A DNA stretch of 64,000 bases from an uncultured bacterium (GTDB lineage: Bacteria > Abyssobacteria > SURF-5): NCBI GenBank assembly GCA_964453435.1, contig CAYVQZ010000002.1:179439-243438 (forward strand). The letters run 5' to 3'. The position numbers were made by a program, and so were the translations under genes. Shown here piece after piece: positions 5,834 through 24,643 of the stretch. Below the pieces are notes generated by a model. It made no database searches. It was not told where the DNA came from and saw only the letters and a program-made list of their open reading frames with translations. Position 1 is the first letter of the stretch; each line of letters opens with the position of its first letter.

Positions 5834-6583
5834 ATGAAGCGGGATTCCGCTCAAGGAGCGCTTATCCGCTACGGGATGATTATAGACCTTGACAAGTGCA
5901 CCGGATGCGGTAACTGCGCGGTCGCCTGTCATATGGAGAACAACGTCCCATTCATGGTAGACGAAAGCGACAAGGCGCGCAACATTGCCTGGATGAGGAT
6001 TTATCGTGTTACCAATGGGGCGGAATATCCGCGCATTCGAGTGGCCCATATTCCGCGGCCCTGCATGCAATGCGACCACCACACACCGTGCGTCTCTGTC
6101 TGTCCTGCCAGCGCGACAAACTATGACAAAGACACGGGACTCGTCGACCAGATAAACACCCGATGCATCGGTTGCCGTTATTGCATGGCGGCGTGTCCGT
6201 ACATGGTTCGATGCTTTAATTGGTGGGACCCGGTCTGGCCCGCGGACACAGAGAAATACCTCAACCCCGATGTCGCGCCGAGGATGCGGGGCGTAGTGGA
6301 AAAATGCACATTCTGCTCGCATAGGTACACGAAGGCAAAAAACAAAGCTCATGCGGAAGGTCGAACCGCATTGGAAAAGGGTGAGTACATGCCCGCCTGT
6401 GTCGAGGCATGCCCCGTCGGCGCCATGTATTTCGGCGATTTAAACAACCCCGCTGACGAGGTGGCGGTCTTTGCCAGGAGCGAACGCGCATTCAGGCTTC
6501 TCGAAAGCCTGCGTTCCGAACCGAAAGTATATTACCTCAGCTCCGAGAGTTGGGTGAAGCGATGGGCGGACAACGGCAGATGA
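5834..6583 (+). CDS. 4Fe-4S ferredoxin-type iron-sulfur subunit (QrcC/PsrB-like)
   Basis: Multiple CxxCxxCxxxCP clusters (CTGCGNCAVACH, CIGCRYCMAACP, CVEACP). Start taken at MKRDSAQG; the track ORF starts earlier, overlapping the upstream gene. Confidence 0.75.
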   Translation: MKRDSAQGALIRYGMIIDLDKCTGCGNCAVACHMENNVPFMVDESDKARNIAWMRIYRVTNGAEYPRIRVAHIPRPCMQCDHHTPCVSVCPASATNYDKDTGLVDQINTRCIGCRYCMAACPYMVRCFNWWDPVWPADTEKYLNPDVAPRMRGVVEKCTFCSHRYTKAKNKAHAEGRTALEKGEYMPACVEACPVGAMYFGDLNNPADEVAVFARSERAFRLLESLRSEPKVYYLSSESWVKRWADNGR

Positions 6584-12230: not shown

Positions 12231-14024
12231 ATGGCAGGTTACAGCAAGGAAACCATGGAAAAAATGGAGGCGGGGATAGGTTCCGACGAGGCCGTCTCTC
12301 TCTGTTCGCTCATTGACCGGCTGGCCGACGCGGCCTCTTTGGTGGAACGCATGCCCGAACTCTGCATGTCCATTCTGAACATGGTCATCGAGTTCACCCC
12401 GTGCGAGAACGCTTCAATCATGCTCACCAATTCCGGAACCGGAGCGCTCGACCTGTTCTGCGCCAAGGGAAGGTCGGACAACGGGGCCTTTTTCGGAAAT
12501 GCCCGACTTTCGCCCCTCTCGTTTGCGCTCGGCGAGGGCGCGGCCGGATGGGTGGCCGAGCAAGCCCGGCCCATCGTCATCAACGATTGCGAGGACGATG
12601 CCCGGTTTATCAGGCTGCCGTCGTCCCGGAAAGGGGTAAATTCCATCATATGCGCTCCGCTCCTCGTCGAACAGTCCGTCATCGGAGTGCTGAACTGCAG
12701 TCATCCGGACAAGCAGAGATTCGGCCCGGCCGACAAGCGCGCCGTGGCTATGATCGCTCGTCACGCCTCCGTTCTCATTCGAACCGCCATGGCCATCGAC
12801 CGGATGCGCGGCGAACGCAGGCGATGGGAGGAACAGGCGGAAAGCGCGAAGCAAAGGATCGCTCAGTTGGACCATACACTCGGAGAAATGCGGGAACAAC
12901 TGTACCGGACGCAGAAATTCGCCTCGCTCGGTGAACTGCTGGCCGGAGCGGCGCACGAACTGAACAACCGCATCGCGCCCATCCTCATCTATTCGCAAAT
13001 GCTCCGGCGCCACGTTACCGATGAGAAAGACCAAAAACGCCTCGGTGTCGTCGAAGACTCGGCCATCGGCGCAAAAACCATTCTCCAAACCCTGCTCAAT
13101 TATTCAAGGACCGAAAAAAGCGAAAAAGAGCCGGTCGACCTCAATCAGATTCTTCTAAACACGGTCACGCTGGTTGAATACAAAATGCGGAATCGGGGGA
13201 TCGAACTCTCGCTGGAACTCTGTTCCGACCTCCCGAGCGTGTCCGCAAACGAAAAACAGATTGCGCAGGTGCTTCTCAACCTCATCAACAACGCAATTCA
13301 CGCCATGGAGGAGAAGGGCGGAAAACTTTACGTGCGGACAACCTGTGACCGCCAAAATGTCAAGCTTACGATTTCGGATTCAGGCGCCGGCATCCCTGAG
13401 GAAATCCTCGATAAAATCTTCGACCCGTTCTTCACAACGAAGGAATCCGGCAAAGGAACCGGCCTCGGTCTGAGCATATCAAAACGATATGTCGATGAAC
13501 ATGGCGGGCGCATCTACATTGAGAGCACTAATAACGCCGGCGCCACCTTCGTCGTCGAGCTTCCCTCGACGCCCGCAGAGACAAATGCATCGGCATCCCG
13601 GCTCGAACAAGCGCCGAAGGAATCCAATGGCGAAGACGGAGCCGCGCGAATTCTCGTTGTCGACGACGACGCCACCATCCGCAACGTGATTCGGGACGTC
13701 CTCGGCAGCGCGTACGATGTCGAATTTGCCGAAAACGGAAATGAGGCGACCCAAAAAATCCAGGGCGATGTGTTCGACCTTCTCGTCGTCGACTACCACA
13801 TGCCCGGACTGGACGGGAAACAGCTCTACGAATGGGTCGCAGACCATCGGCCCGTCATGAAGAACCGGATCGTATTCAGCACCGGCGACATCTGTCGCGA
13901 TGAAATCCGGGATTTCATCGAAAGCACCGGCTGCATATGTCTTTTGAAACCATTCTCCACGGCCGACCTTCGGAAGGTCGTCTCCGCCGGCATTCACACA
14001 GAAGGAGCGGGTCTGCGGATTTGA
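12231..14024 (+). CDS. Hybrid sensor histidine kinase (GAF + HisKA + HATPase_c + C-terminal receiver)
   Basis: H-box [11 protein letters not shown]-box [13 protein letters not shown], then receiver ILVVDDD...[10 protein letters not shown]. Confidence 0.85.
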
Positions 14025-16095: not shown

Positions 16096-19000
16096 TCAGG
16101 TGGTTTCGGCCCAATCGCGGCAGAGAACTTCTGCCTGCTCGAGGACAAGCTCCGTAGCGCGGGCCTGCTTGTCGGGCGGGTAGCCGTAGCGGCGGAGAAT
16201 CCTTTTGGTCATCACTCGCATCTGGGCGCGGACGTTCTCGCGCAGCGTCCAATCGATGGTCACGTTGTTGCGCACGGCCTTCACGAGTTCCTGTGCGATG
16301 GTTTTCAGGGTTTCATCTCCGAGAACCTGCACCGCGCTGTCATTCGTCTCCAGGGCGTCGTAGAAAGCCACTTCCTCTTCTGTGAGTCCGAGCTTTTCTC
16401 CGCGCCGGTCGGCCTCGCGCAGGTCCTTGGCCAGATTGATGAGCTCCTCTATGACTTGCACCGTTGCTATGGCCCGATTCTGATACTTTCTGATTGATTC
16501 CTCGAGCATTTGGGCGAACGAGCGGGCCTGCACGATATTCTTTCGTTTGCGTGTCTTGATCTCGCCTTCGAGCAACTTTCGCAGCATCTCGACTGCCAGA
16601 TTCCTGTGCGGCATGCCGCGCACCTCGGCGAGAAATTCGTCGGACAGAATCGAGACATCCGGCTTCTTGAGTCCGGCAGCCGCAAAGATGTCGATTATTC
16701 TGTCCGACGCTACCGCGCGCGATACGATCTGCCGAATCGCATGGTCCAATTCCTCGGGACTGCGCCGGTCGCCTGTCACGCTTTTGCGCAGGACGGATTT
16801 GACCGCCTGGAAGAACGCGACGTCATCCCGAATCGCAAGCGCCTTCTCGTGCGGTACGGACAGCGCGAACGCATGCGACAAATCCGTGACCGCTCTCGAC
16901 AGCCGCTCCTTGCCGTCCTCCTGTTGAAGCACGTGCTCCTGCGCGGCGGGCAACACCGACAGCCGCTCCTGCGGATTGGCGGATTTCCACCGCGACCAGT
17001 CGAACCCGTGGAATATGCCGCAGCAGATTTCGTATTTCTCGAGCATCGCTTCAACGGCCCTCGCCTGGTCAATGGCGGTCTCGCCCTGTCCGCCGCTTCT
17101 CGTATAGTTCTCCACGGCTGACTGCAGTTCGTGCGCGAGGCCGAGGTAATCCACAATGAGGCCGCCGGGCTTGTCCTTGAACTTCCGGTTCACGCGCGCT
17201 ATCGCCTGCATCAATCCGTGGCTTCGCATAGGCTTATCCATGTACATCGTGTGCAGGCTCGGGACGTTGAATCCCGTCAACCACATATCGCGAACAATCG
17301 CCACCTGAAACGAGTCGTCGGGGTCCCTGAACCTGTTTGCAAGCTCCTCGCGCCGCGCTTTCGGCCGGATATGCGGCTGCCACTCGGCGGGGTCGGACGC
17401 CGAGCCGGTCATGACCACTTTGATGATGCCTTTCTTGTCGTCATCGTAATGCCATTCGTGGCGCAGAGCGACAATGGCCCTGTACAGGTCAACGCAGATT
17501 CGGCGGCTCATGCACACAATCATGGCTTTACCGTCCATCGCCCGGAGACGCTCTTCGAAGTGGTTCACGATGTCCTGCGCGATAAGCCTTATTCTCTTTT
17601 CCGCGCCGACAATCGCCTCAAGCTGAGCCCACTTCGTCTTGAGCTGCTCCTTATGTTCGACCTCTTCGCCTTCGGTCACCTCCTCGAAATCCTCATCAAG
17701 CTTTGGCCTTGCAGCCTCGTCAAGTTCCAGCTTTGCAAGGCGGCTTTCGTAGTATATCGGGACAGTCGCCTCGTCCTGCACGGCGCGCTCGATGTCATAG
17801 ATGCTGATATAGTCGCCGAAGACCGCGCGTGTGTTCTTATCGGTCAATTCGATTGGTGTTCCCGTGAACCCGATGAACGAAGCGTTCGGCAGCGCGTCCC
17901 TCATATATCGGGCGAACCCGTCAATGAAATCGTACTGGCTTCGATGGGCCTCATCGGCGATGACGACGATATTGCGCCGGTCCGAGAGCAGCGGGTGCTG
18001 GTCCTCGCCCTGGGTCGGAAAGAACTTGTGGACCGTCGTGAATACGACGCCGCCCGAGGCCACTTTCAGCTTGGCGCGCAAATCGGCCCGACTCGCCGCC
18101 TGCGCGGGCGGCTGCCGCAACAATTCATGACACCGCGCGAACGTGCCGTAAAGCTGGTCGTCGAGGTCGTTGCGGTCGGTGATGACGACAAGCGTCGGGT
18201 TCTCCATTGCCGGATGCTGTATGACGCGGCCGGCGTAGAAGGCCATCGTAAGGCTCTTGCCCGAGCCCTGCGTGTGCCACACGACCCCGACACGCTTGTC
18301 GCCGGGGCGCGCGTCGGGCCGGCTTCGGGCAAAATAGGTTCCTTCCGACTCTTTCGCCACCAGAGCCTTTGCGGGAGAAACGCAGGCGCGGATGGTCTCC
18401 TCGACGGCCACGTTGACGCCGTGGTACTGGTGGTAACCGGCCATTTTCTTGACGAGGACGCCGCTGCTGACATCCTCGAAGACGATGAAGTATCTGATAA
18501 GATCGAGGAACCGCCGCTTGTCGAACACTCCTTGCAGCGCCACCTGCAATTGGGGTACAGATTGCTCGGCGAGTTCCTGCCCTTCGATGGTCCGCCACGG
18601 CATGAACCACTCGCGGTTGGCCGTGAGCGTGCCGATCCGGGCTTCTGTGCCGTCAGAGATGACAAGCGCTTCGTTATAGGCGAAGAGCGACGGGATCTGT
18701 TCCTTATAGGTCTGAAGCTGGTTGAAGGCCGACCAAATGGTTGCGTTCTCGTCGGCGGGGTTCTTCAGTTCTATTACCGCAAATGGCAGGCCATTGACGA
18801 ACAGAACGATGTCGGGCCTGCGCTCGCGGTGGTCCTCGACAACCGTAAACTGGTTCACGGCCAGAAACTCGTTGTTCTCGGGGTCGCCGTAATCCAGCGC
18901 GCGCAAATAATCGCCGCCGAATGAGCCGTCGGGGCGCTGGTATTCCACCGGCACTCCCTCGACCAGGTATTTATGAAGGGTGTGGTTGTTCGCCACGAGT

Positions 19001-19245
19001 GAAGGCGAGTCGAGGCGCGCGAGTTTCCGAAAGCCCTCTTCCAGGACATCGGGCGACATGTGCGGGTTGAGACGTTGGAGCGCCTGCCGGAGCCGGCGCT
19101 CCAGCAGGACTTGCTTGTAGTCGTCGCGCTCGGCATGCAGTTCGCCGGGCGCAATCTCGGGACCCGGGAGGATGAGGTAACCCATGCTTTCGAGCCAGGC
19201 CAGAGCGGCCTGCTCGACGATGGATTCGGTGAAGCCGTGGGTCAT
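16096..19245 (-). CDS. hsdR: Type I restriction enzyme R subunit
   Basis: 1049 aa. Conserved HsdR N-terminus [23 protein letters not shown] and helicase motifs (TGSGKS, DEAH). AGGAGG RBS. Confidence 0.9.
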
Positions 19246-19922
19246 TGGCCCCGCCTCCTGCTGGTCCGGGTGCGGTACAGTCGTTCGGTGAAACCGCCTT
19301 CCTTCTCAAAGGCTTTGGCCTGGGCGGCGATCTGGCGGTTGAGGAAATGACACGCGAGGTTCAAAAGAGAGAGCGCTGCGTTGGCCGCGAGTTCGGCGGA
19401 AGAGACGGACTGACACGGACCTTTACGGACAGGCACGGACGAGGAACTGCGTCGGTTGTTCTTGTTGTTTGCGGCTGTCTGTGCGTGTCCCTGCTTGTCC
19501 GTGAGGTTTCGGGATTGGTGAAGTTCTTCTTCGACCCAGTCTTTGACCTCTTGCAGCGTCGAGCAGCGCTTTGCCTTGAATCGGAGAAGCGCCGGATGAT
19601 CCGGCGCCCAAATCGGCAGCCCGCGCTGCCGCAGGAAATCCTCGTAGTCCAGCTTCAGTTCCTCCAGGCTTGCGCGCGCCACGTTGGTGAGTTTCAGTTC
19701 CATTTTCTTCGAGGTGGCCGAGGCCTGGCTGCCCTCGGCAATGTTCTGGACGCCGGAGCGCGCCGCCTGCACCATCTGGTCGTGGGTGCGGCTGCGCCTG
19801 TCGATGTAGCGGTCGCAGAACCGCGCGGTCATATCATAAACCAACTGAGCGACCTGGAAGCTCTTGAGCTTTCGGTAGCCGCCGTGCTTGGGGATCAGCG
19901 GTTCTTTGTCCATTGTGTCCAT
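19242..19922 (-). CDS. Four-helix-bundle protein (TIGR02436/bAvd-like) with C-terminal extension, embedded in the hsd operon
   Basis: [18 protein letters not shown]...GVQNIAEGS pattern typical of the four-helix-bundle family frequently found in hsd loci. Overlaps the hsdR start by 4 nt. Confidence 0.6.
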
Positions 19923-19931
19923 GGTGTTCTC

Positions 19932-20159
19932 CTAGACGGTTCTTGCCACGGTCCGCTCCGGATTGGGAACCCGCATCTCGCCGGAGATGAGCTTGGGGAG
20001 AAGGGTGTCGCGGAGAGCGGCGAGGGTGGGGAACTTACCACACCCCTTATGTCCTTTGCCACAGGAGATGTCCGGCCCAGACAGGGCCAAATAGCCTATC
20101 CTCTCCAGCCATGCCAAGGCGGCTTGCTCGACTACGGATTCGGTCAACCGTAAGGCCAT
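19932..20159 (-). pseudogene. Chimeric remnant: HsdR N-terminus-like ~30 aa fused to HsdS C-terminus-like ~25 aa (recombination scar)
   Basis: [32 protein letters not shown] resembles HsdR residues 1-33. ...[23 protein letters not shown] resembles the HsdS C-terminus [27 protein letters not shown]. Its ATG overlaps the TIR-gene TGA (ATGA). Confidence 0.6.
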
Positions 20160-21262
20160 CAGAAAGGAATCTCCTCTTCCTTTGTCCGCTCTGGCGATAT
20201 CAGTTCGTTGTTTCTCACTTCCCACCGCTTCCCGGTCCATTTCTTCAAGAGCGGTTGCAGCAAATCCGTTCCCTTGAATGAACGCCTATTCTGTTCATTC
20301 GTGCGGTAAGCTTTGAAAACGTGTGTCACTTGGTCCGGGGTTAGATCCTCGAAAATCGACAAAAGGTGCTCAATCTTCCATGCTGAGTCTTCCCAAGTCA
20401 CCGAAGCAGCATAGGCGGAGAGTGCACAATCGAATAACCTCGACCTGTCTGGTAGACGCTTGTGGAGTACCTGGAATATCTTGACTGCCATGCTGTCGGT
20501 ATCAGACCAGCTACATCCACCAAGCCCTTGCCCTTTCGCCATGAGACCGTAGGGATCAAGCCCCAGCCGGACGGCAATGAGCGGTACACCTCTCCCAATT
20601 GCCACACCCACTTCCTGATCTGTCCAATTGCTGTCTTTATAATCTTCAGAAAGCAACGCCACCAAAGCATCCATACTAAACAACGCCCGTTCAATCTCGC
20701 GCTGCCATTCTTCGGTCGGTTCGATGTCCTCATGTGCGACGAACGCCGCTATCCCGCAGCGAGCGAAGGATTCTTTAAGTCTCGTCGCATGCTGCTTGAC
20801 TGAAGATTTATGGCTGAGGAAGATGCGCACGTGCTCCTGCCCCCATATCCGCTTCAATGCCTCAGCCGGAATCGACGAAGCGGCAATACGCGGTCGAAAC
20901 ACTCCGGCTCTTTCGCGCCAATTATCTACCTTTATCGGTTCCACCTCGATGAACACTTCGCTGATATATTCATTCTGGCTATTATCCAACTTGTTGATAT
21001 CATCCTTGATGTGCTTTTGGAGGCTATCCCTGTTTTCCATCACTTTAAAGTAGATATCTTCTGACACCGTAAGCGTAATTGCATGGCCATAGGTTCCACC
21101 ATTCCAATTATCATAGTCCCATCCTTCATGAATGAAGACGACGCCGTTGACGACGATTTCTCTCAGAAGTCTCTCGCCCGTTTTCTCATAGAAGCGGTTC
21201 AAGGTTGCAAGGTATGAATCCACTTTGCCAGGGAGTCGGAATTGGCGGTCACCGGTGGTCAT
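20159..21262 (-). CDS. TIR-like domain protein (TIR_2/DUF1863-type core, residues ~145-240) with unknown N- and C-terminal domains; candidate anti-phage effector
   Basis: VRIFLSHKSSVKQHATRLKESFARCGIAAFVAHEDIEPTEEWQREIERALFSMDALVALLSEDYKDSNWTDQEVGVAIGRGVPLIAV matches the bacterial TIR pattern (F-S-H-K...D-I-x-G-x-W...S-x-W-x-x-x-E...IP). ATGA-coupled to hsdS upstream and to the scar ORF downstream. Confidence 0.6.
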   Translation of the reverse strand: MTTGDRQFRLPGKVDSYLATLNRFYEKTGERLLREIVVNGVVFIHEGWDYDNWNGGTYGHAITLTVSEDIYFKVMENRDSLQKHIKDDINKLDNSQNEYISEVFIEVEPIKVDNWRERAGVFRPRIAASSIPAEALKRIWGQEHVRIFLSHKSSVKQHATRLKESFARCGIAAFVAHEDIEPTEEWQREIERALFSMDALVALLSEDYKDSNWTDQEVGVAIGRGVPLIAVRLGLDPYGLMAKGQGLGGCSWSDTDSMAVKIFQVLHKRLPDRSRLFDCALSAYAASVTWEDSAWKIEHLLSIFEDLTPDQVTHVFKAYRTNEQNRRSFKGTDLLQPLLKKWTGKRWEVRNNELISPERTKEEEIPF

Positions 21263-22566
21263 TTCACAGCCTCCATCTTTGGCAGGCGCAGTTCGCCCGA
21301 AATCAACTTGGGTAGCAGCGCGTCACGGATGGCAGCGAGCGCGCGAGACTCGTTCCTGTTCACCTCGGCTCGCAGAAACAGTGGTTGCGTGTTCTTGTCG
21401 AAGGTGGCAATGAGTTGTGAATTGTCAGGAAGAACGATGTCGCGGCTACCCACCACCTCGGGACGGATGGCGGGGTATGCTCCGCCGTCGGCAAGCCGAC
21501 CGAGTTCTTGTCCAAACTCCGGCCGTGTCGTCGCAATATGAAGGAACGCCCAGTTGCCATCCTTCGGTGTCAATGCAGCGAAACCTGTGGATGCGATTAG
21601 CGATTTCGATGGGTTCAAGGCAAGGAAGTATGCTCCGCGATCTGGTCGGACGGTCGACAGCACGGTATCGCCATGACTCAATCGTCGACGAGCCCTGCTC
21701 GGTTCTTCACCTCGAAGATAGCGGCTGATTATCCCTACCTCGCCGTGCATGACCTCGCTGATCTCGATATAGTCTATGACATCAAGGTGATCGCGTCGTC
21801 CAAGAGTGAGGGCGTTGATGTTAGCAATGTCTGAAATTTTGCCAATCCTCCACCCCTTCGGAATCTCGCCCAATTCGGAGTTCTCAAACGAATCCGGGAA
21901 GAGGTCGGCGACGTCTTTGGGCAGGTTGGGGTTGCGGCCTTGGGCTTTGGCGTGGACGGGGTCGAAGTCCACGAACCAGCTTTTGAAGATGGCCCGCGCA
22001 ATGGCCTCCAGCGTCTGATTCATTCGCCGGTTCAGCTCGATCTTGTCGTCCAACGCCCCGAGAATGCAGGCGATGGCGCGTTGCTGTTCGAGGGGAGGGA
22101 TGGTGATGTACATGCGACGTTGGTCTCGAAGACTCACATACTCCGCCATGTCCGTTTGGCCTGCCACTCCTGAAAACTGGACAAAGAACTCCCGCGAGTG
22201 CATCCAATAGTAAAGCCAACGAGGGTCCAAGCAATCACGATTCAAGACTCTCCAGAAACACAACTGGGGCGCATAGACGAACCGGGGTGTGTCATGTCGA
22301 ACAAATGCGAACCGTCCAACAGTCCCTTTCGATGTAAAAACCACATCTTCGGCTTGACTAATCTTAATTCCGACTTTTGCGAGGTCTTGTTCTGGAAAGC
22401 AATCCGCACCCGCGAAGTGAAAGCCGTTGTTGATGTTCTGCGCCCGCGCGAAAGGAATTCCCTGCGGTGACAACTCGGAGTTCTTGGCGCGATAGCCATC
22501 GTTGATCGCCAATACTCCGTTGTCGATCAATTCGGCAATGGGAGTAGGAGCGATATCACCCGCCAT
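21259..22566 (-). CDS. hsdS: Type I restriction-modification specificity subunit
   Basis: Two target-recognition-domain halves and a conserved C-terminal [16 protein letters not shown] at 22566 overlaps the hsdM stop (ATGGCGGGTGA). The track ORF is over-extended upstream. Confidence 0.85.
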
Positions 22567-24406
22567 ACCCGATATCCTCCAGATTCGCCCAGATGAGCTT
22601 ATCCAACTTGGCGGATTGGGCGGTTTGTTCGCGCAGTTCGGCGGTGAGGCGGGCCATCTTCTCCTCGAATGGCTCGCCGCCTGCCTGCCGAGCCCTTCCC
22701 TCGGCGATGGCTTGCTTGAGCCACCTACGCCCCGCGGTCGTCTTGAGTTCCTGTTCACGCGCTACAGCCGCTTCACGGCTGGTGAACTCCTCGTAATGTG
22801 CGATATAGCGGGGCTTGTTCTTCTTCGTCCAATCGGTTCCCTGCCCAGACACATGCTCTTGCCATCGCCGAGGGAGGTTATCGGTGTGGCCAATGTAGTA
22901 GCTGCCGCCTTCGCAAGCGATGGCGTAGACGAAATACACGCCAGGTCTCGGCGCAGGCAGGCCGTCCTCGACTTCCGCCGCGCCGACGTAGCGGCCGGGC
23001 GTGAGGATGTGGTTGTGATGGCGAATGTCATCGAGCGTGGCGGATTTGCACAAGCCCGGAACATCCTCATATTTTTGTGCGCAGTCCTTGTCGCCCCGCC
23101 ATGCGTGATATGTGTCGGCGATTTTCCGAATATCCTCGTCGGTCAGTTCGCGGTGGACGCGGTCGATCATGGTTCCGAGCTTGCGGGCGTCGATGATTAA
23201 GGTCTCTCCGCGTCGGTCGCGGAATCGCCGGTTCTTCTTGTCGCGCGCGATGAACCAGAGGCAGACGGGAATCTGGGTGGAGTAGAACAATTGGCCCGGC
23301 ATGGCGACCATGCAGTCAACCAGATCGGCCTCGATGATGTTCCTGCGGATTTCGCCCTCGCCGGATTGGTTGGAGGACATCGAGCCGTTGGCCAGGACAA
23401 AGCCCGCCAGACCGGTGGGCGCGAGATGATAGATGAAGTGCTGGACCCATGCGAAGTTGGCGTTGGAGGCGGGCGGGATACCATACTTCCAGCGCTTGTC
23501 GTCTTTCAGGAGTTCGCCGCGCCAATCGCTGTCGTTGAAGGGCGGATTGGCCAAAACATAGTCCGCCTTGAGGTCGGGGTGCAGGTCGCGGTGGAAACTG
23601 TCGGCGTGTTCCGGCCCGAGGTTGTTGTCGATTCCCCGGATGGCGAGGTTCATTTTCGCCAGACGCCATGTGGTGTGGTTCGACTCCTGCCCGAACACGC
23701 TTACGTTGCCCCTTGCCCGGCCTCCGTTGCCGTTGCCCGACGCATGCGCCTCGACGAACTGGACCGACTGCACGAACATGCCGCCCGAGCCGCAGCACGG
23801 GTCGTACACGCGTCCCTTGAAGGGGGCGAGCATCTCGACCAGCACGCGCACAACACAGCGCGGTGTGTAGAACTGGCCGCCCTTCTTGCCTTCGGCGCTC
23901 GCGAATTGCGAGAGGAAATATTCATACACGCGTCCCAGGATGTCCTTCGAGCGGTTCTCCTTGTCACCGAGGCCGATGTTTCCGATGAGGTCGATAAGCT
24001 GGCCGAGCCGCTGCTTGTCGAGGCGCGGATGCGAATATTCCTTCGGGAGCACACCTTTCAGTGACGGGTTCACGTTCTCAATCGCCTGCATGGCGTCGTC
24101 TATGACTTTGCCGATGGTGGTCTGTTTGGCGCATGCTTTCAGGTGTGACCACCGGGCCTCCTTCGGGACCCAGAAGATGTTCACGGCGCGATACTCATCC
24201 GGGTCCTCCGGGTCGGCGCCCTGCTCACGCTGCGTTTCGAGAAAGGCATGGTGCTCCTCGAAGGCGTCGGATATATATTTCAGGAAAATCAAGCCGAGCA
24301 CGACATGCTTGTACTCGGCGGCGTCCATATTCGAGCGCAGCGCGTCGGCCGCCTGCCACAGTTGCCGTTCGAAACCGAGGTTCGCGCCGTTGCTGGTCTT
24401 GGCCAT
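22556..24406 (-). CDS. hsdM: Type I restriction-modification N6-adenine DNA methyltransferase with an inserted YhbQ-like GIY-YIG nuclease domain
   Basis: HsdM N-terminal domain and NPPF motif. An ~85-aa insertion [67 protein letters not shown]...RRWLKQAI (GIY-YIG/COG2827-like) sits between the catalytic domain and the conserved C-terminal helix ([17 protein letters not shown]...). Start ATG at 24406 with GGGAGA RBS. Confidence 0.8.
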
Positions 24407-24643
24407 TCGGCAGTGTCTCCCATCTGTTCGTTCTGGCGACAGAATAGTTCTTCTCGGACTCTTCCATTGGAAATGATACATCATGTTATTGAAATAATCA
24501 ACTGAAAGTGCATTTGCGTCGCTGCGCTCGGTCAATTCGGGGGGACAGGATACTGATTTTTACTAGCAACGCCTCTGTTTTGCATATTGCTGAACAACGC
24601 GTCCCGCATGATAAGGTCCCCGATGGAGAAGAGCGAAAAGCGA

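Follow-up and report, generated by a model that had tools for sequence, protein, structure and literature searches.

A probable recombination scar: an hsdR–hsdS chimeric open reading frame between two cassettes nested in a type I restriction–modification operon

Between two passenger genes of a type I restriction–modification (RM) operon in an uncultured SURF-5 bacterium lies a 75-codon open reading frame (ORF) that begins like one subunit gene of the operon and ends like another. What is such an ORF, and how did it come to stand there? It occupies positions 20159..19932 of the minus strand (75 codons and a stop) in a 64,000-nucleotide stretch of contig CAYVQZ010000002.1, the whole of which is referred to here as the window. 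The identical locus, with the 75-residue product called as a gene, is found on three metagenome contigs (L001–L003; related loci are designated by L numbers).

The operon is read from the minus strand in the order hsdM, hsdS, TIR gene, 75-codon ORF, four-helix-bundle (4HB) gene, hsdR. Annotation with Pfam, NCBIfam and PADLOC bears out the order hsdS–TIR–chimera–4HB–hsdR that had been proposed from the DNA letters. The methyltransferase gene hsdM (22556..24406; Pfam HsdM_N, N6_Mtase and GIY-YIG; PADLOC MTase_I, E = 1e-218) has an ORF that reaches back to a TTG at 24535, with the ATG at 24406 as the likely true start. A GIY-YIG nuclease domain of ~92 residues is inserted in frame near the HsdM C-terminus (22679–22954, minus strand; Pfam E = 9e-13); the HsdM homologues of L099 and L104 are without this insertion, yet can be aligned on either side of it. 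The resident hsdS (21259..22566, 435 residues; Pfam Methylase_S; PADLOC Specificity_I, E = 6e-88), which is also called as a 435-residue gene in L001, has its conserved 3′ tail at 21262–21351. The resident hsdR (16096..19245, 1049 residues; Pfam HSDR_N, SWI2_SNF2 and T1RH-like_C; PADLOC REase_I, 1142 bits) is intact, and its 5′ head lies at 19057–19245. HsdM, HsdS and HsdR are all present and intact, as expected of a type I RM system, and the TIR and 4HB genes are nested between hsdS and hsdR on the same strand, which is the RM-embedded arrangement as defined by Payne et al. (2024; bioRxiv 10.1101/2024.01.29.577857).

The first cassette (20159..21262, minus strand) encodes a 367-residue TIR_2-domain protein (Pfam TIR_2, E = 1e-15). 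It has weak matches to ThsB, Thoeris ThcB4 and PDC-S66 in NCBIfam and PADLOC. A Thoeris system was rejected: the operon has no ThsA-like gene, and the ThsB score is 44 bits against a curated cut-off of 220 (PADLOC E = 2e-4). The first ~135 residues of the TIR protein match no family. The second cassette (19242..19922, minus strand) encodes a 226-residue 4HB protein with 23S_rRNA_IVP and 4helix_suffix domains, which scores above the family cut-offs of TIGR02436 (35 bits, cut-off 24), TIGR04258 (69, cut-off 40) and PF05635 (34.0, cut-off 33.8) and has no PADLOC match. The third-codon-position GC content (GC3) is 0.57 in the TIR gene and 0.63 in hsdS, compared with 0.74–0.77 in hsdM, the 75-codon ORF, the 4HB gene and hsdR. 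The low value of the TIR gene relative to its neighbours suggests, without being decisive, that this gene was probably a later arrival in the operon.

The genes are tightly packed. The hsdS and TIR genes overlap by ATGA, the TIR gene and the ORF by TGATG, and the 4HB gene and hsdR again by ATGA; a 9-nt spacer separates the ORF from the 4HB gene, for which the TAGGAG of the ORF stop region provides the Shine–Dalgarno sequence. The C-terminal 'suffix' codons of the 4HB gene (19242–19275, ending in SRRRGQ and the stop) supply hsdR with its GGAGG ribosome-binding site and with the ATGA overlap, and 4HB homologues stand directly upstream of hsdR in L018 (9989–9992), L020 and L022, as if 4HB and hsdR were a fixed pair. 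Promoter and terminator counts across the operon equal the expectation from shuffled sequence, with none at the ORF, and the window contains no tRNA gene as an integration target.

The ORF had been described as a chimera of the HsdR N-terminus and the HsdS C-terminus, and nucleotide and protein comparisons uphold this description. The head (20049..20159, minus strand) is a copy of hsdR codons 1 to ~33–37: positions 20068–20147 align with positions 19154–19233 of the resident hsdR at 71% identity over 80 nt without gaps, and residues 6–33 of the product are ~71% identical to HsdR residues 6–33 (tblastn E ~ 1e-10). The tail (19932..20027, minus strand) is a copy of the last ~31 hsdS codons and the stop. 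It is ~72% identical to the resident hsdS 3′ end in a 53-nt local alignment (tblastn E = 4e-11), and ORF residues 42–74 match positions 413–445 of the 446 in the PADLOC Specificity_I profile (E = 1e-9). Both alignment scores lie above those of all 2000 shuffles (head, 54 versus 17.8 ± 2.2 with a maximum of 33; tail, 36 versus 16.7 ± 2.3 with a maximum of 31). The objection that the similarity might be confined to low-complexity stretches fails, as the ORF sequence is not of low complexity and its scores exceed those of the shuffles. Between head and tail are ~36 nt (CGKGHKGCGKFP, roughly 20028–20064) that resemble neither parent. The core of this middle part (20028..20048, minus strand) was delimited by reading the sequence and has no tblastn match; the stretch is either filler or decayed hsdR head. 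As a whole, the ORF has no match among the Pfam and NCBIfam families.

The two halves are similar to the resident genes, but the pattern of divergence is not that of local copies. The proportion of differing synonymous sites (pS) is 0.78 between the head and the resident hsdR and 0.72 between the tail and the resident hsdS, against nonsynonymous proportions (pN) of 0.14 and 0.12, respectively. With the synonymous sites saturated and the protein conserved, the halves must have split from the residents while both genes were functional, and this combination of high pS and low pN rules out a local duplication of the resident genes. As judged from these alignments, both halves derive from another working operon and are foreign to the resident genes. 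Better partners exist elsewhere: among 81 real hsdR heads, the best matches to the ORF head are those of L010 and L013 (79–80%), with the resident head at 71% ranking 12th, and among 64 real hsdS tails the best are 81–82% identical to the ORF tail, with the resident at 70% ranking 24th. Even the closest of the heads, at 79–80%, is too distant to be taken as the donor.

The origin of the tail can be narrowed further. A single block made up of the ORF tail, the spacer and the 4HB gene can be aligned with the hsdS tail and 4HB gene of L018, an operon with the order hsdS–4HB–hsdR, a full-length hsdS and a 4HB protein 69% identical to that of the window; the ORF tail and the true hsdS end of L018 share ~92% identity over 40 nt. 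This block match identifies the tail as a remnant of an hsdS that formerly preceded this 4HB gene. For the other cassette, a TIR homologue directly follows hsdS in L099, L104 and L105, and a more distant one does so in L072. A further homologue, 69% identical, is nested in a type III RM system, flanked there by the methylase and Res genes (L101, 4090–10105), so that the same cassette is found in different types of RM system. The original prediction of two tandem hsdS/hsdR junction units carrying different inserts is thus matched by the foreign halves and by the single-insert relatives, L018 for the 4HB gene and L104, L105 and L072 for the TIR gene. The suggested comparison with related genomes lacking one or both inserts succeeded in part: single-insert operons occur elsewhere, but no close relative of this organism was found to be missing an insert. 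When the 4HB and TIR proteins were looked up by exact match, only three contigs came back, all of the same locus, and hence no before-and-after pair; the closest HsdR from the genome collection reaches 80% identity. The event and its direction are therefore not directly observed.

We consider it likely that the 75-codon ORF is a recombination scar, without a function of its own, that joins two units each made up of an hsdS end, a cassette and an hsdR start. Two such units from different operons of one type I family, one with TIR and one with 4HB as its cassette, would have been joined head to tail. An illegitimate or unequal crossover would have fused the first ~33 codons of the hsdR on the TIR side to the last ~31 codons of the hsdS on the 4HB side. 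Each cassette would have retained its native translational joins (the ATGA and TGATG overlaps and the ribosome-binding site in the hsdS stop region), with the result that the operon stays one coupled unit and the scar stays an open frame. For the molecular route we infer one of three candidates: alleles may have undergone unequal crossover, incoming DNA may have been joined by homology-facilitated illegitimate recombination, or a deletion may have occurred between neighbouring systems. The hsdS tail and hsdR head that are kept in this way may later act as homology arms for the swapping of cassettes.

The scar is not peculiar to this operon. A protein search with the 75-residue product returned 82 matches at E ≤ 0.001, dozens of which are ORFs of 48–132 residues that span 80–100% of the query. 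They share one build, an HsdR N-terminus of ~16 to 75 residues followed by the HsdS C-terminal motif, with several types of join, the commonest having ...QVVLAQRLRD on the hsdR side. An exhaustive profile search over 1.84 billion cluster representatives (clusters at 50% identity) gave 963 matches at E ≤ 1e-10. The best 150 are all of 58–276 residues; ~101 of these cover both halves in one stretch and 19 more do so in two stretches. Protein searches of this kind detect in-frame chimeras only. The numbers indicate that head-plus-tail scars are a widespread class rather than a one-off. Several of the chimeric ORFs are labelled 'type I restriction enzyme R subunit' or 'S subunit' in the source databases, labels which are annotation artefacts.

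All of the chimera homologues for which the context was examined lie between cassettes inside a type I operon. L004 and L005 have the order hsdS–KwaA-KwaB–Abi_C–scar–peptidase M78 with DUF4411–hsdR, and L095 has the order hsdS–KwaA-KwaB–Abi_C–scar–AAA_13–hsdR. Longer arrays also occur: L007 has five cassettes with four remnants between them (two head–tail and two head-only), and in L092, where the cassettes number at least five, all three kinds of remnant (head–tail, tail-only and head-only) occur, and one head–tail join is out of frame (13021–13226); the arrays of L090 and L094 are similar. A further scar was found independently, via the TIR protein, in L099, where the order is hsdM–hsdS–TIR homologue–scar–reverse transcriptase–DUF6978–DUF1828/1829–hsdR. 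Homology to both parents, foreign halves, single-cassette relatives and the recurrence of scars at cassette boundaries are all shown, on the level of sequence, by these comparisons.

A comparison of L004 with L095 bears on what happens at such a boundary. Their collinearity begins at the hsdS tail, takes in KwaAB and Abi_C and ends inside the scar tail (74.6% over 2.5 kb). In the second cassette they have nothing in common, and the alignment resumes precisely with the hsdR head (80% over 3.2 kb). The region between scar tail and hsdR head thus acts like a slot that can be refilled. Exchange of its content would be the outcome expected of homologous recombination on hsdS-tail and hsdR-head arms.

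How the joins themselves form can be followed where a scar resembles the genes around it. The L004 scar shares 93% identity with the hsdR head of the same operon and is then nearly identical to that operon's hsdS tail; across L004, L095, L007 and L092 the identity to the operon's own hsdR head before the switch is 84–93%. The switch falls in L004, L095 and L092 inside a stretch, TGCGCGAC, that is common to both genes and encodes LRD in both proteins. In L007 it falls further upstream, and the head of the scar alone is close to the operon's own hsdR. Among the 81 real heads, that of the same operon is the closest to the scar head in L004, L007, L047, L063, L092 and L095. Scar heads thus track their own hsdR, which points to repeated origin within lineages and not to the spread of one ancestral gene.

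Homology-facilitated illegitimate recombination and unequal crossover are established makers of tandem structures; in the former, one conserved flank anchors the incoming DNA and the other end joins at a few identical bases. The switch within TGCGCGAC in L004, L095 and L092 resembles the outcome of this process, which is a candidate route for these loci. The resemblance has two limits: the microhomology is no longer than background, and the join in the window has ~36 unmatched nucleotides in place of the shared stretch. A built-in long microhomology was rejected as a general cause, since hsdR heads and hsdS tails share exact matches of at most 7.4 nt on average, compared with 7.5 nt in control hsdR segments. 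The joins are best described, from their sequences, as probable products of ordinary illegitimate recombination at microhomology with no dedicated site. Microhomology accounts for single joins, but not for the clustering of breakpoints in short head and tail segments.

Could the scar frame be maintained for the sake of translation? One alternative is that selection keeps the scar open as a relay, with ribosomes that have completed the upstream cassette reinitiating at its ATG and stopping beside the next cassette, the peptide itself being irrelevant. Such a relay would maintain coupling and spare the stacked operon from polarity. The junctions are what it would need: in the window a TGATG lies upstream and a 9-nt spacer with AGGAG downstream, and ATGA overlaps flank the scar on both sides in L004, L008 and L095. 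These overlaps, however, come from the native hsdS and hsdR joins. Of the head–tail joins that were not selected by the protein query, three out of four are in frame, a count that is too small to be significant (p of about 0.11); moreover, a join within a motif that has the same codon register in both parents is in frame automatically. The out-of-frame join of L092 and the frequency of head-only, tail-only and stop-containing remnants also speak against a relay, which we regard as unlikely to be the main explanation. Under the recombination-scar reading, some selection on translation through the scar is nevertheless possible, given that many scars are intact and tightly coupled ORFs.

A functional small protein is less probable still. 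Such a protein, a decoy or regulator that binds HsdM/HsdS or HsdR, tunes restriction and spreads as a gene in its own right, would be in keeping with the existence of some 100 or more clusters whose ORFs are intact and whose motifs are strongly conserved, and with the low pN relative to pS in the window, although divergence that preceded the fusion accounts for this ratio. The join and the length vary, with 16 to 75 hsdR codons and in some cases unrelated filler; scar heads resemble their own resident hsdR and not one another; decayed, out-of-frame, head-only and tail-only forms occur; the fragments are small parts of larger folded domains; and no Pfam or NCBIfam family spans the whole ORF. 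We therefore hold a dedicated product to be very improbable. The variable joins and lengths, the decayed and out-of-frame forms and the heads that track the residents argue instead for a pseudogene fragment, as far as the sequences allow this to be judged.

Two further readings of the ORF, as a silent partial hsdS belonging to a phase-variable (shufflon-type) system or as an integron-like cassette boundary run by a site-specific recombinase, are scarcely credible. Phase-variable systems are well known to have additional pieces of hsdS near their type I loci, and arrays with a repeated separator look superficially integron-like. The ORF, however, has only ~31 C-terminal codons of hsdS, without a target-recognition domain and in direct rather than inverted orientation; the boundaries have no notable inverted repeats, the join points are not fixed, and neither a recombinase nor an integrase turned up within or next to the operon, either in the window or in the annotated related loci.

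The likenesses to these known systems are nonetheless worth stating. As in phase-variable loci, hsdS-derived fragments lie beside an expressed hsdS; in those loci, however, the fragments hold target-recognition domains, are usually inverted and recombine to alter specificity, whereas the scar is the conserved C-terminal tail fused to an hsdR start. A phase-variable hsdS locus was rejected on these grounds. As in integrons, promoterless cassettes of the same orientation stand behind a common promoter, with a recurring boundary and slots that differ between relatives (L004 and L095). Unlike integrons, the operon has no integrase, attI or attC. Its cassette boundaries consist of pseudogene pieces derived from the flanking operon genes and joined at variable points, a structure that fits a combination of homologous and illegitimate recombination better than a site-specific process. 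An integron was likewise rejected, no IntI recombinase being encoded in the operon or the flanking ORFs.

To view the boundary through a sample not chosen for scars, eighty loci (L010–L089) were anchored on HsdR alone (67–80% identical to that of the window). They come from metagenome-assembled genomes of more than fifteen phyla, one archaeon included. In 59 loci the contig includes the end of hsdS as well as the start of hsdR. Of these, 55 carry an insert of 648–6687 nt between the two genes; hsdS and hsdR are adjacent in three of the remaining four and separated by a 344-nt gap in one. The 'empty' hsdS–hsdR arrangement is thus the exception in this HsdR family, and the original view of the hsdS/hsdR boundary as a recurrent insertion point is vindicated by the 55 of 59 loci with at least 648 nt there. 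The term 'integration site' should not, however, be taken as site-specific, since the joins vary and the annotated genes in or beside the operons include no recombinase. Head-only or tail-only remnants, some with internal stops, lie within the hsdS–hsdR interval in 18 of 79 loci. The ORFs in the interval (n = 123) belong mostly to defence-associated families, among them AAA_15/AAA_21 ABC ATPases (HEC-01A-, AriA-, GajA- and PtuA-like), Abi_C, SLFN_AlbA_2, DUF4276 (HEC-01B), Fic, Mrr_cat and OLD-type TOPRIM. A few are transposase-like (IS200 Y1_Tnp in three and rve_3 in two), and the content of the slot is therefore not all defence cassettes.

The presence of unrelated defence genes in type I RM operons is well documented. 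Payne et al. (2024) surveyed such genes under the term 'guilt by embedding'; for their origin they offer only the idea of a 'genomic sink', and hsdS, hsdR and recombination are absent from their text. PrrC in EcoprrI is a known embedded defence gene treated in review, TgvAB is embedded in a type I RM operon (PMC11411939), and DarTG2 lies between hsdS and hsdR at a site named a 'potential recombination hotspot' (PMC12255303). Like these systems, the operon of the window and its relatives carry unrelated defence genes on the same strand and apparently co-transcribed; unlike the published examples, this family shows physical scars at the boundaries and arrays of up to five cassettes. In the papers on embedding that we retrieved, there is no account of hsdR-head–hsdS-tail scars, scar-delimited arrays or a mechanism of embedding, and a literature search for hsdR or hsdS remnants at cassette boundaries returned only phase-variable hsdS systems and strain-specific truncations. 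Embedding as such is already known; what appears to be new, on the sequence evidence, is that cassettes are recurrently stacked and swapped at the hsdS/hsdR boundary without a recombinase, as the scars record.

Embedding in RM, BREX and similar systems has recently been used for the discovery of immune systems, while its origin had been left open. The scars provide direct sequence evidence of the embedding process, with stacking by recombination and later exchange of slots between homology arms. An hsdR head beside an hsdS tail is also a simple computational marker that delimits cassettes in multi-gene inserts, and it may help to find new defence genes and to reconstruct the order and source of acquisitions. 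In annotation, small ORFs of this kind are best treated as pseudogene fragments.

A broader reading, which is quite possible but which we hold only tentatively, is that the type I RM operons of this widespread family are recombinase-free cassette arrays, in which every cassette carries conserved pieces of the hsdS end and the hsdR start, so that it could be added, swapped or deleted by ordinary homologous recombination in any related operon. If this is true, the scars would be the boundary elements of the arrays, functionally analogous to attC sites, and the process would be a general way for defence genes to enter RM systems and be carried along with them, maybe at the hsdM/hsdS boundary too. 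At that boundary in L004, the junction sequence of the hsdM end and hsdS start occurs three times (~5177, 5857–5928 and 6364–6458) around MNT/HEPN (NTP_transf_2/HepT) inserts, and this triplicated junction suggests that the same scar-forming process may operate there.
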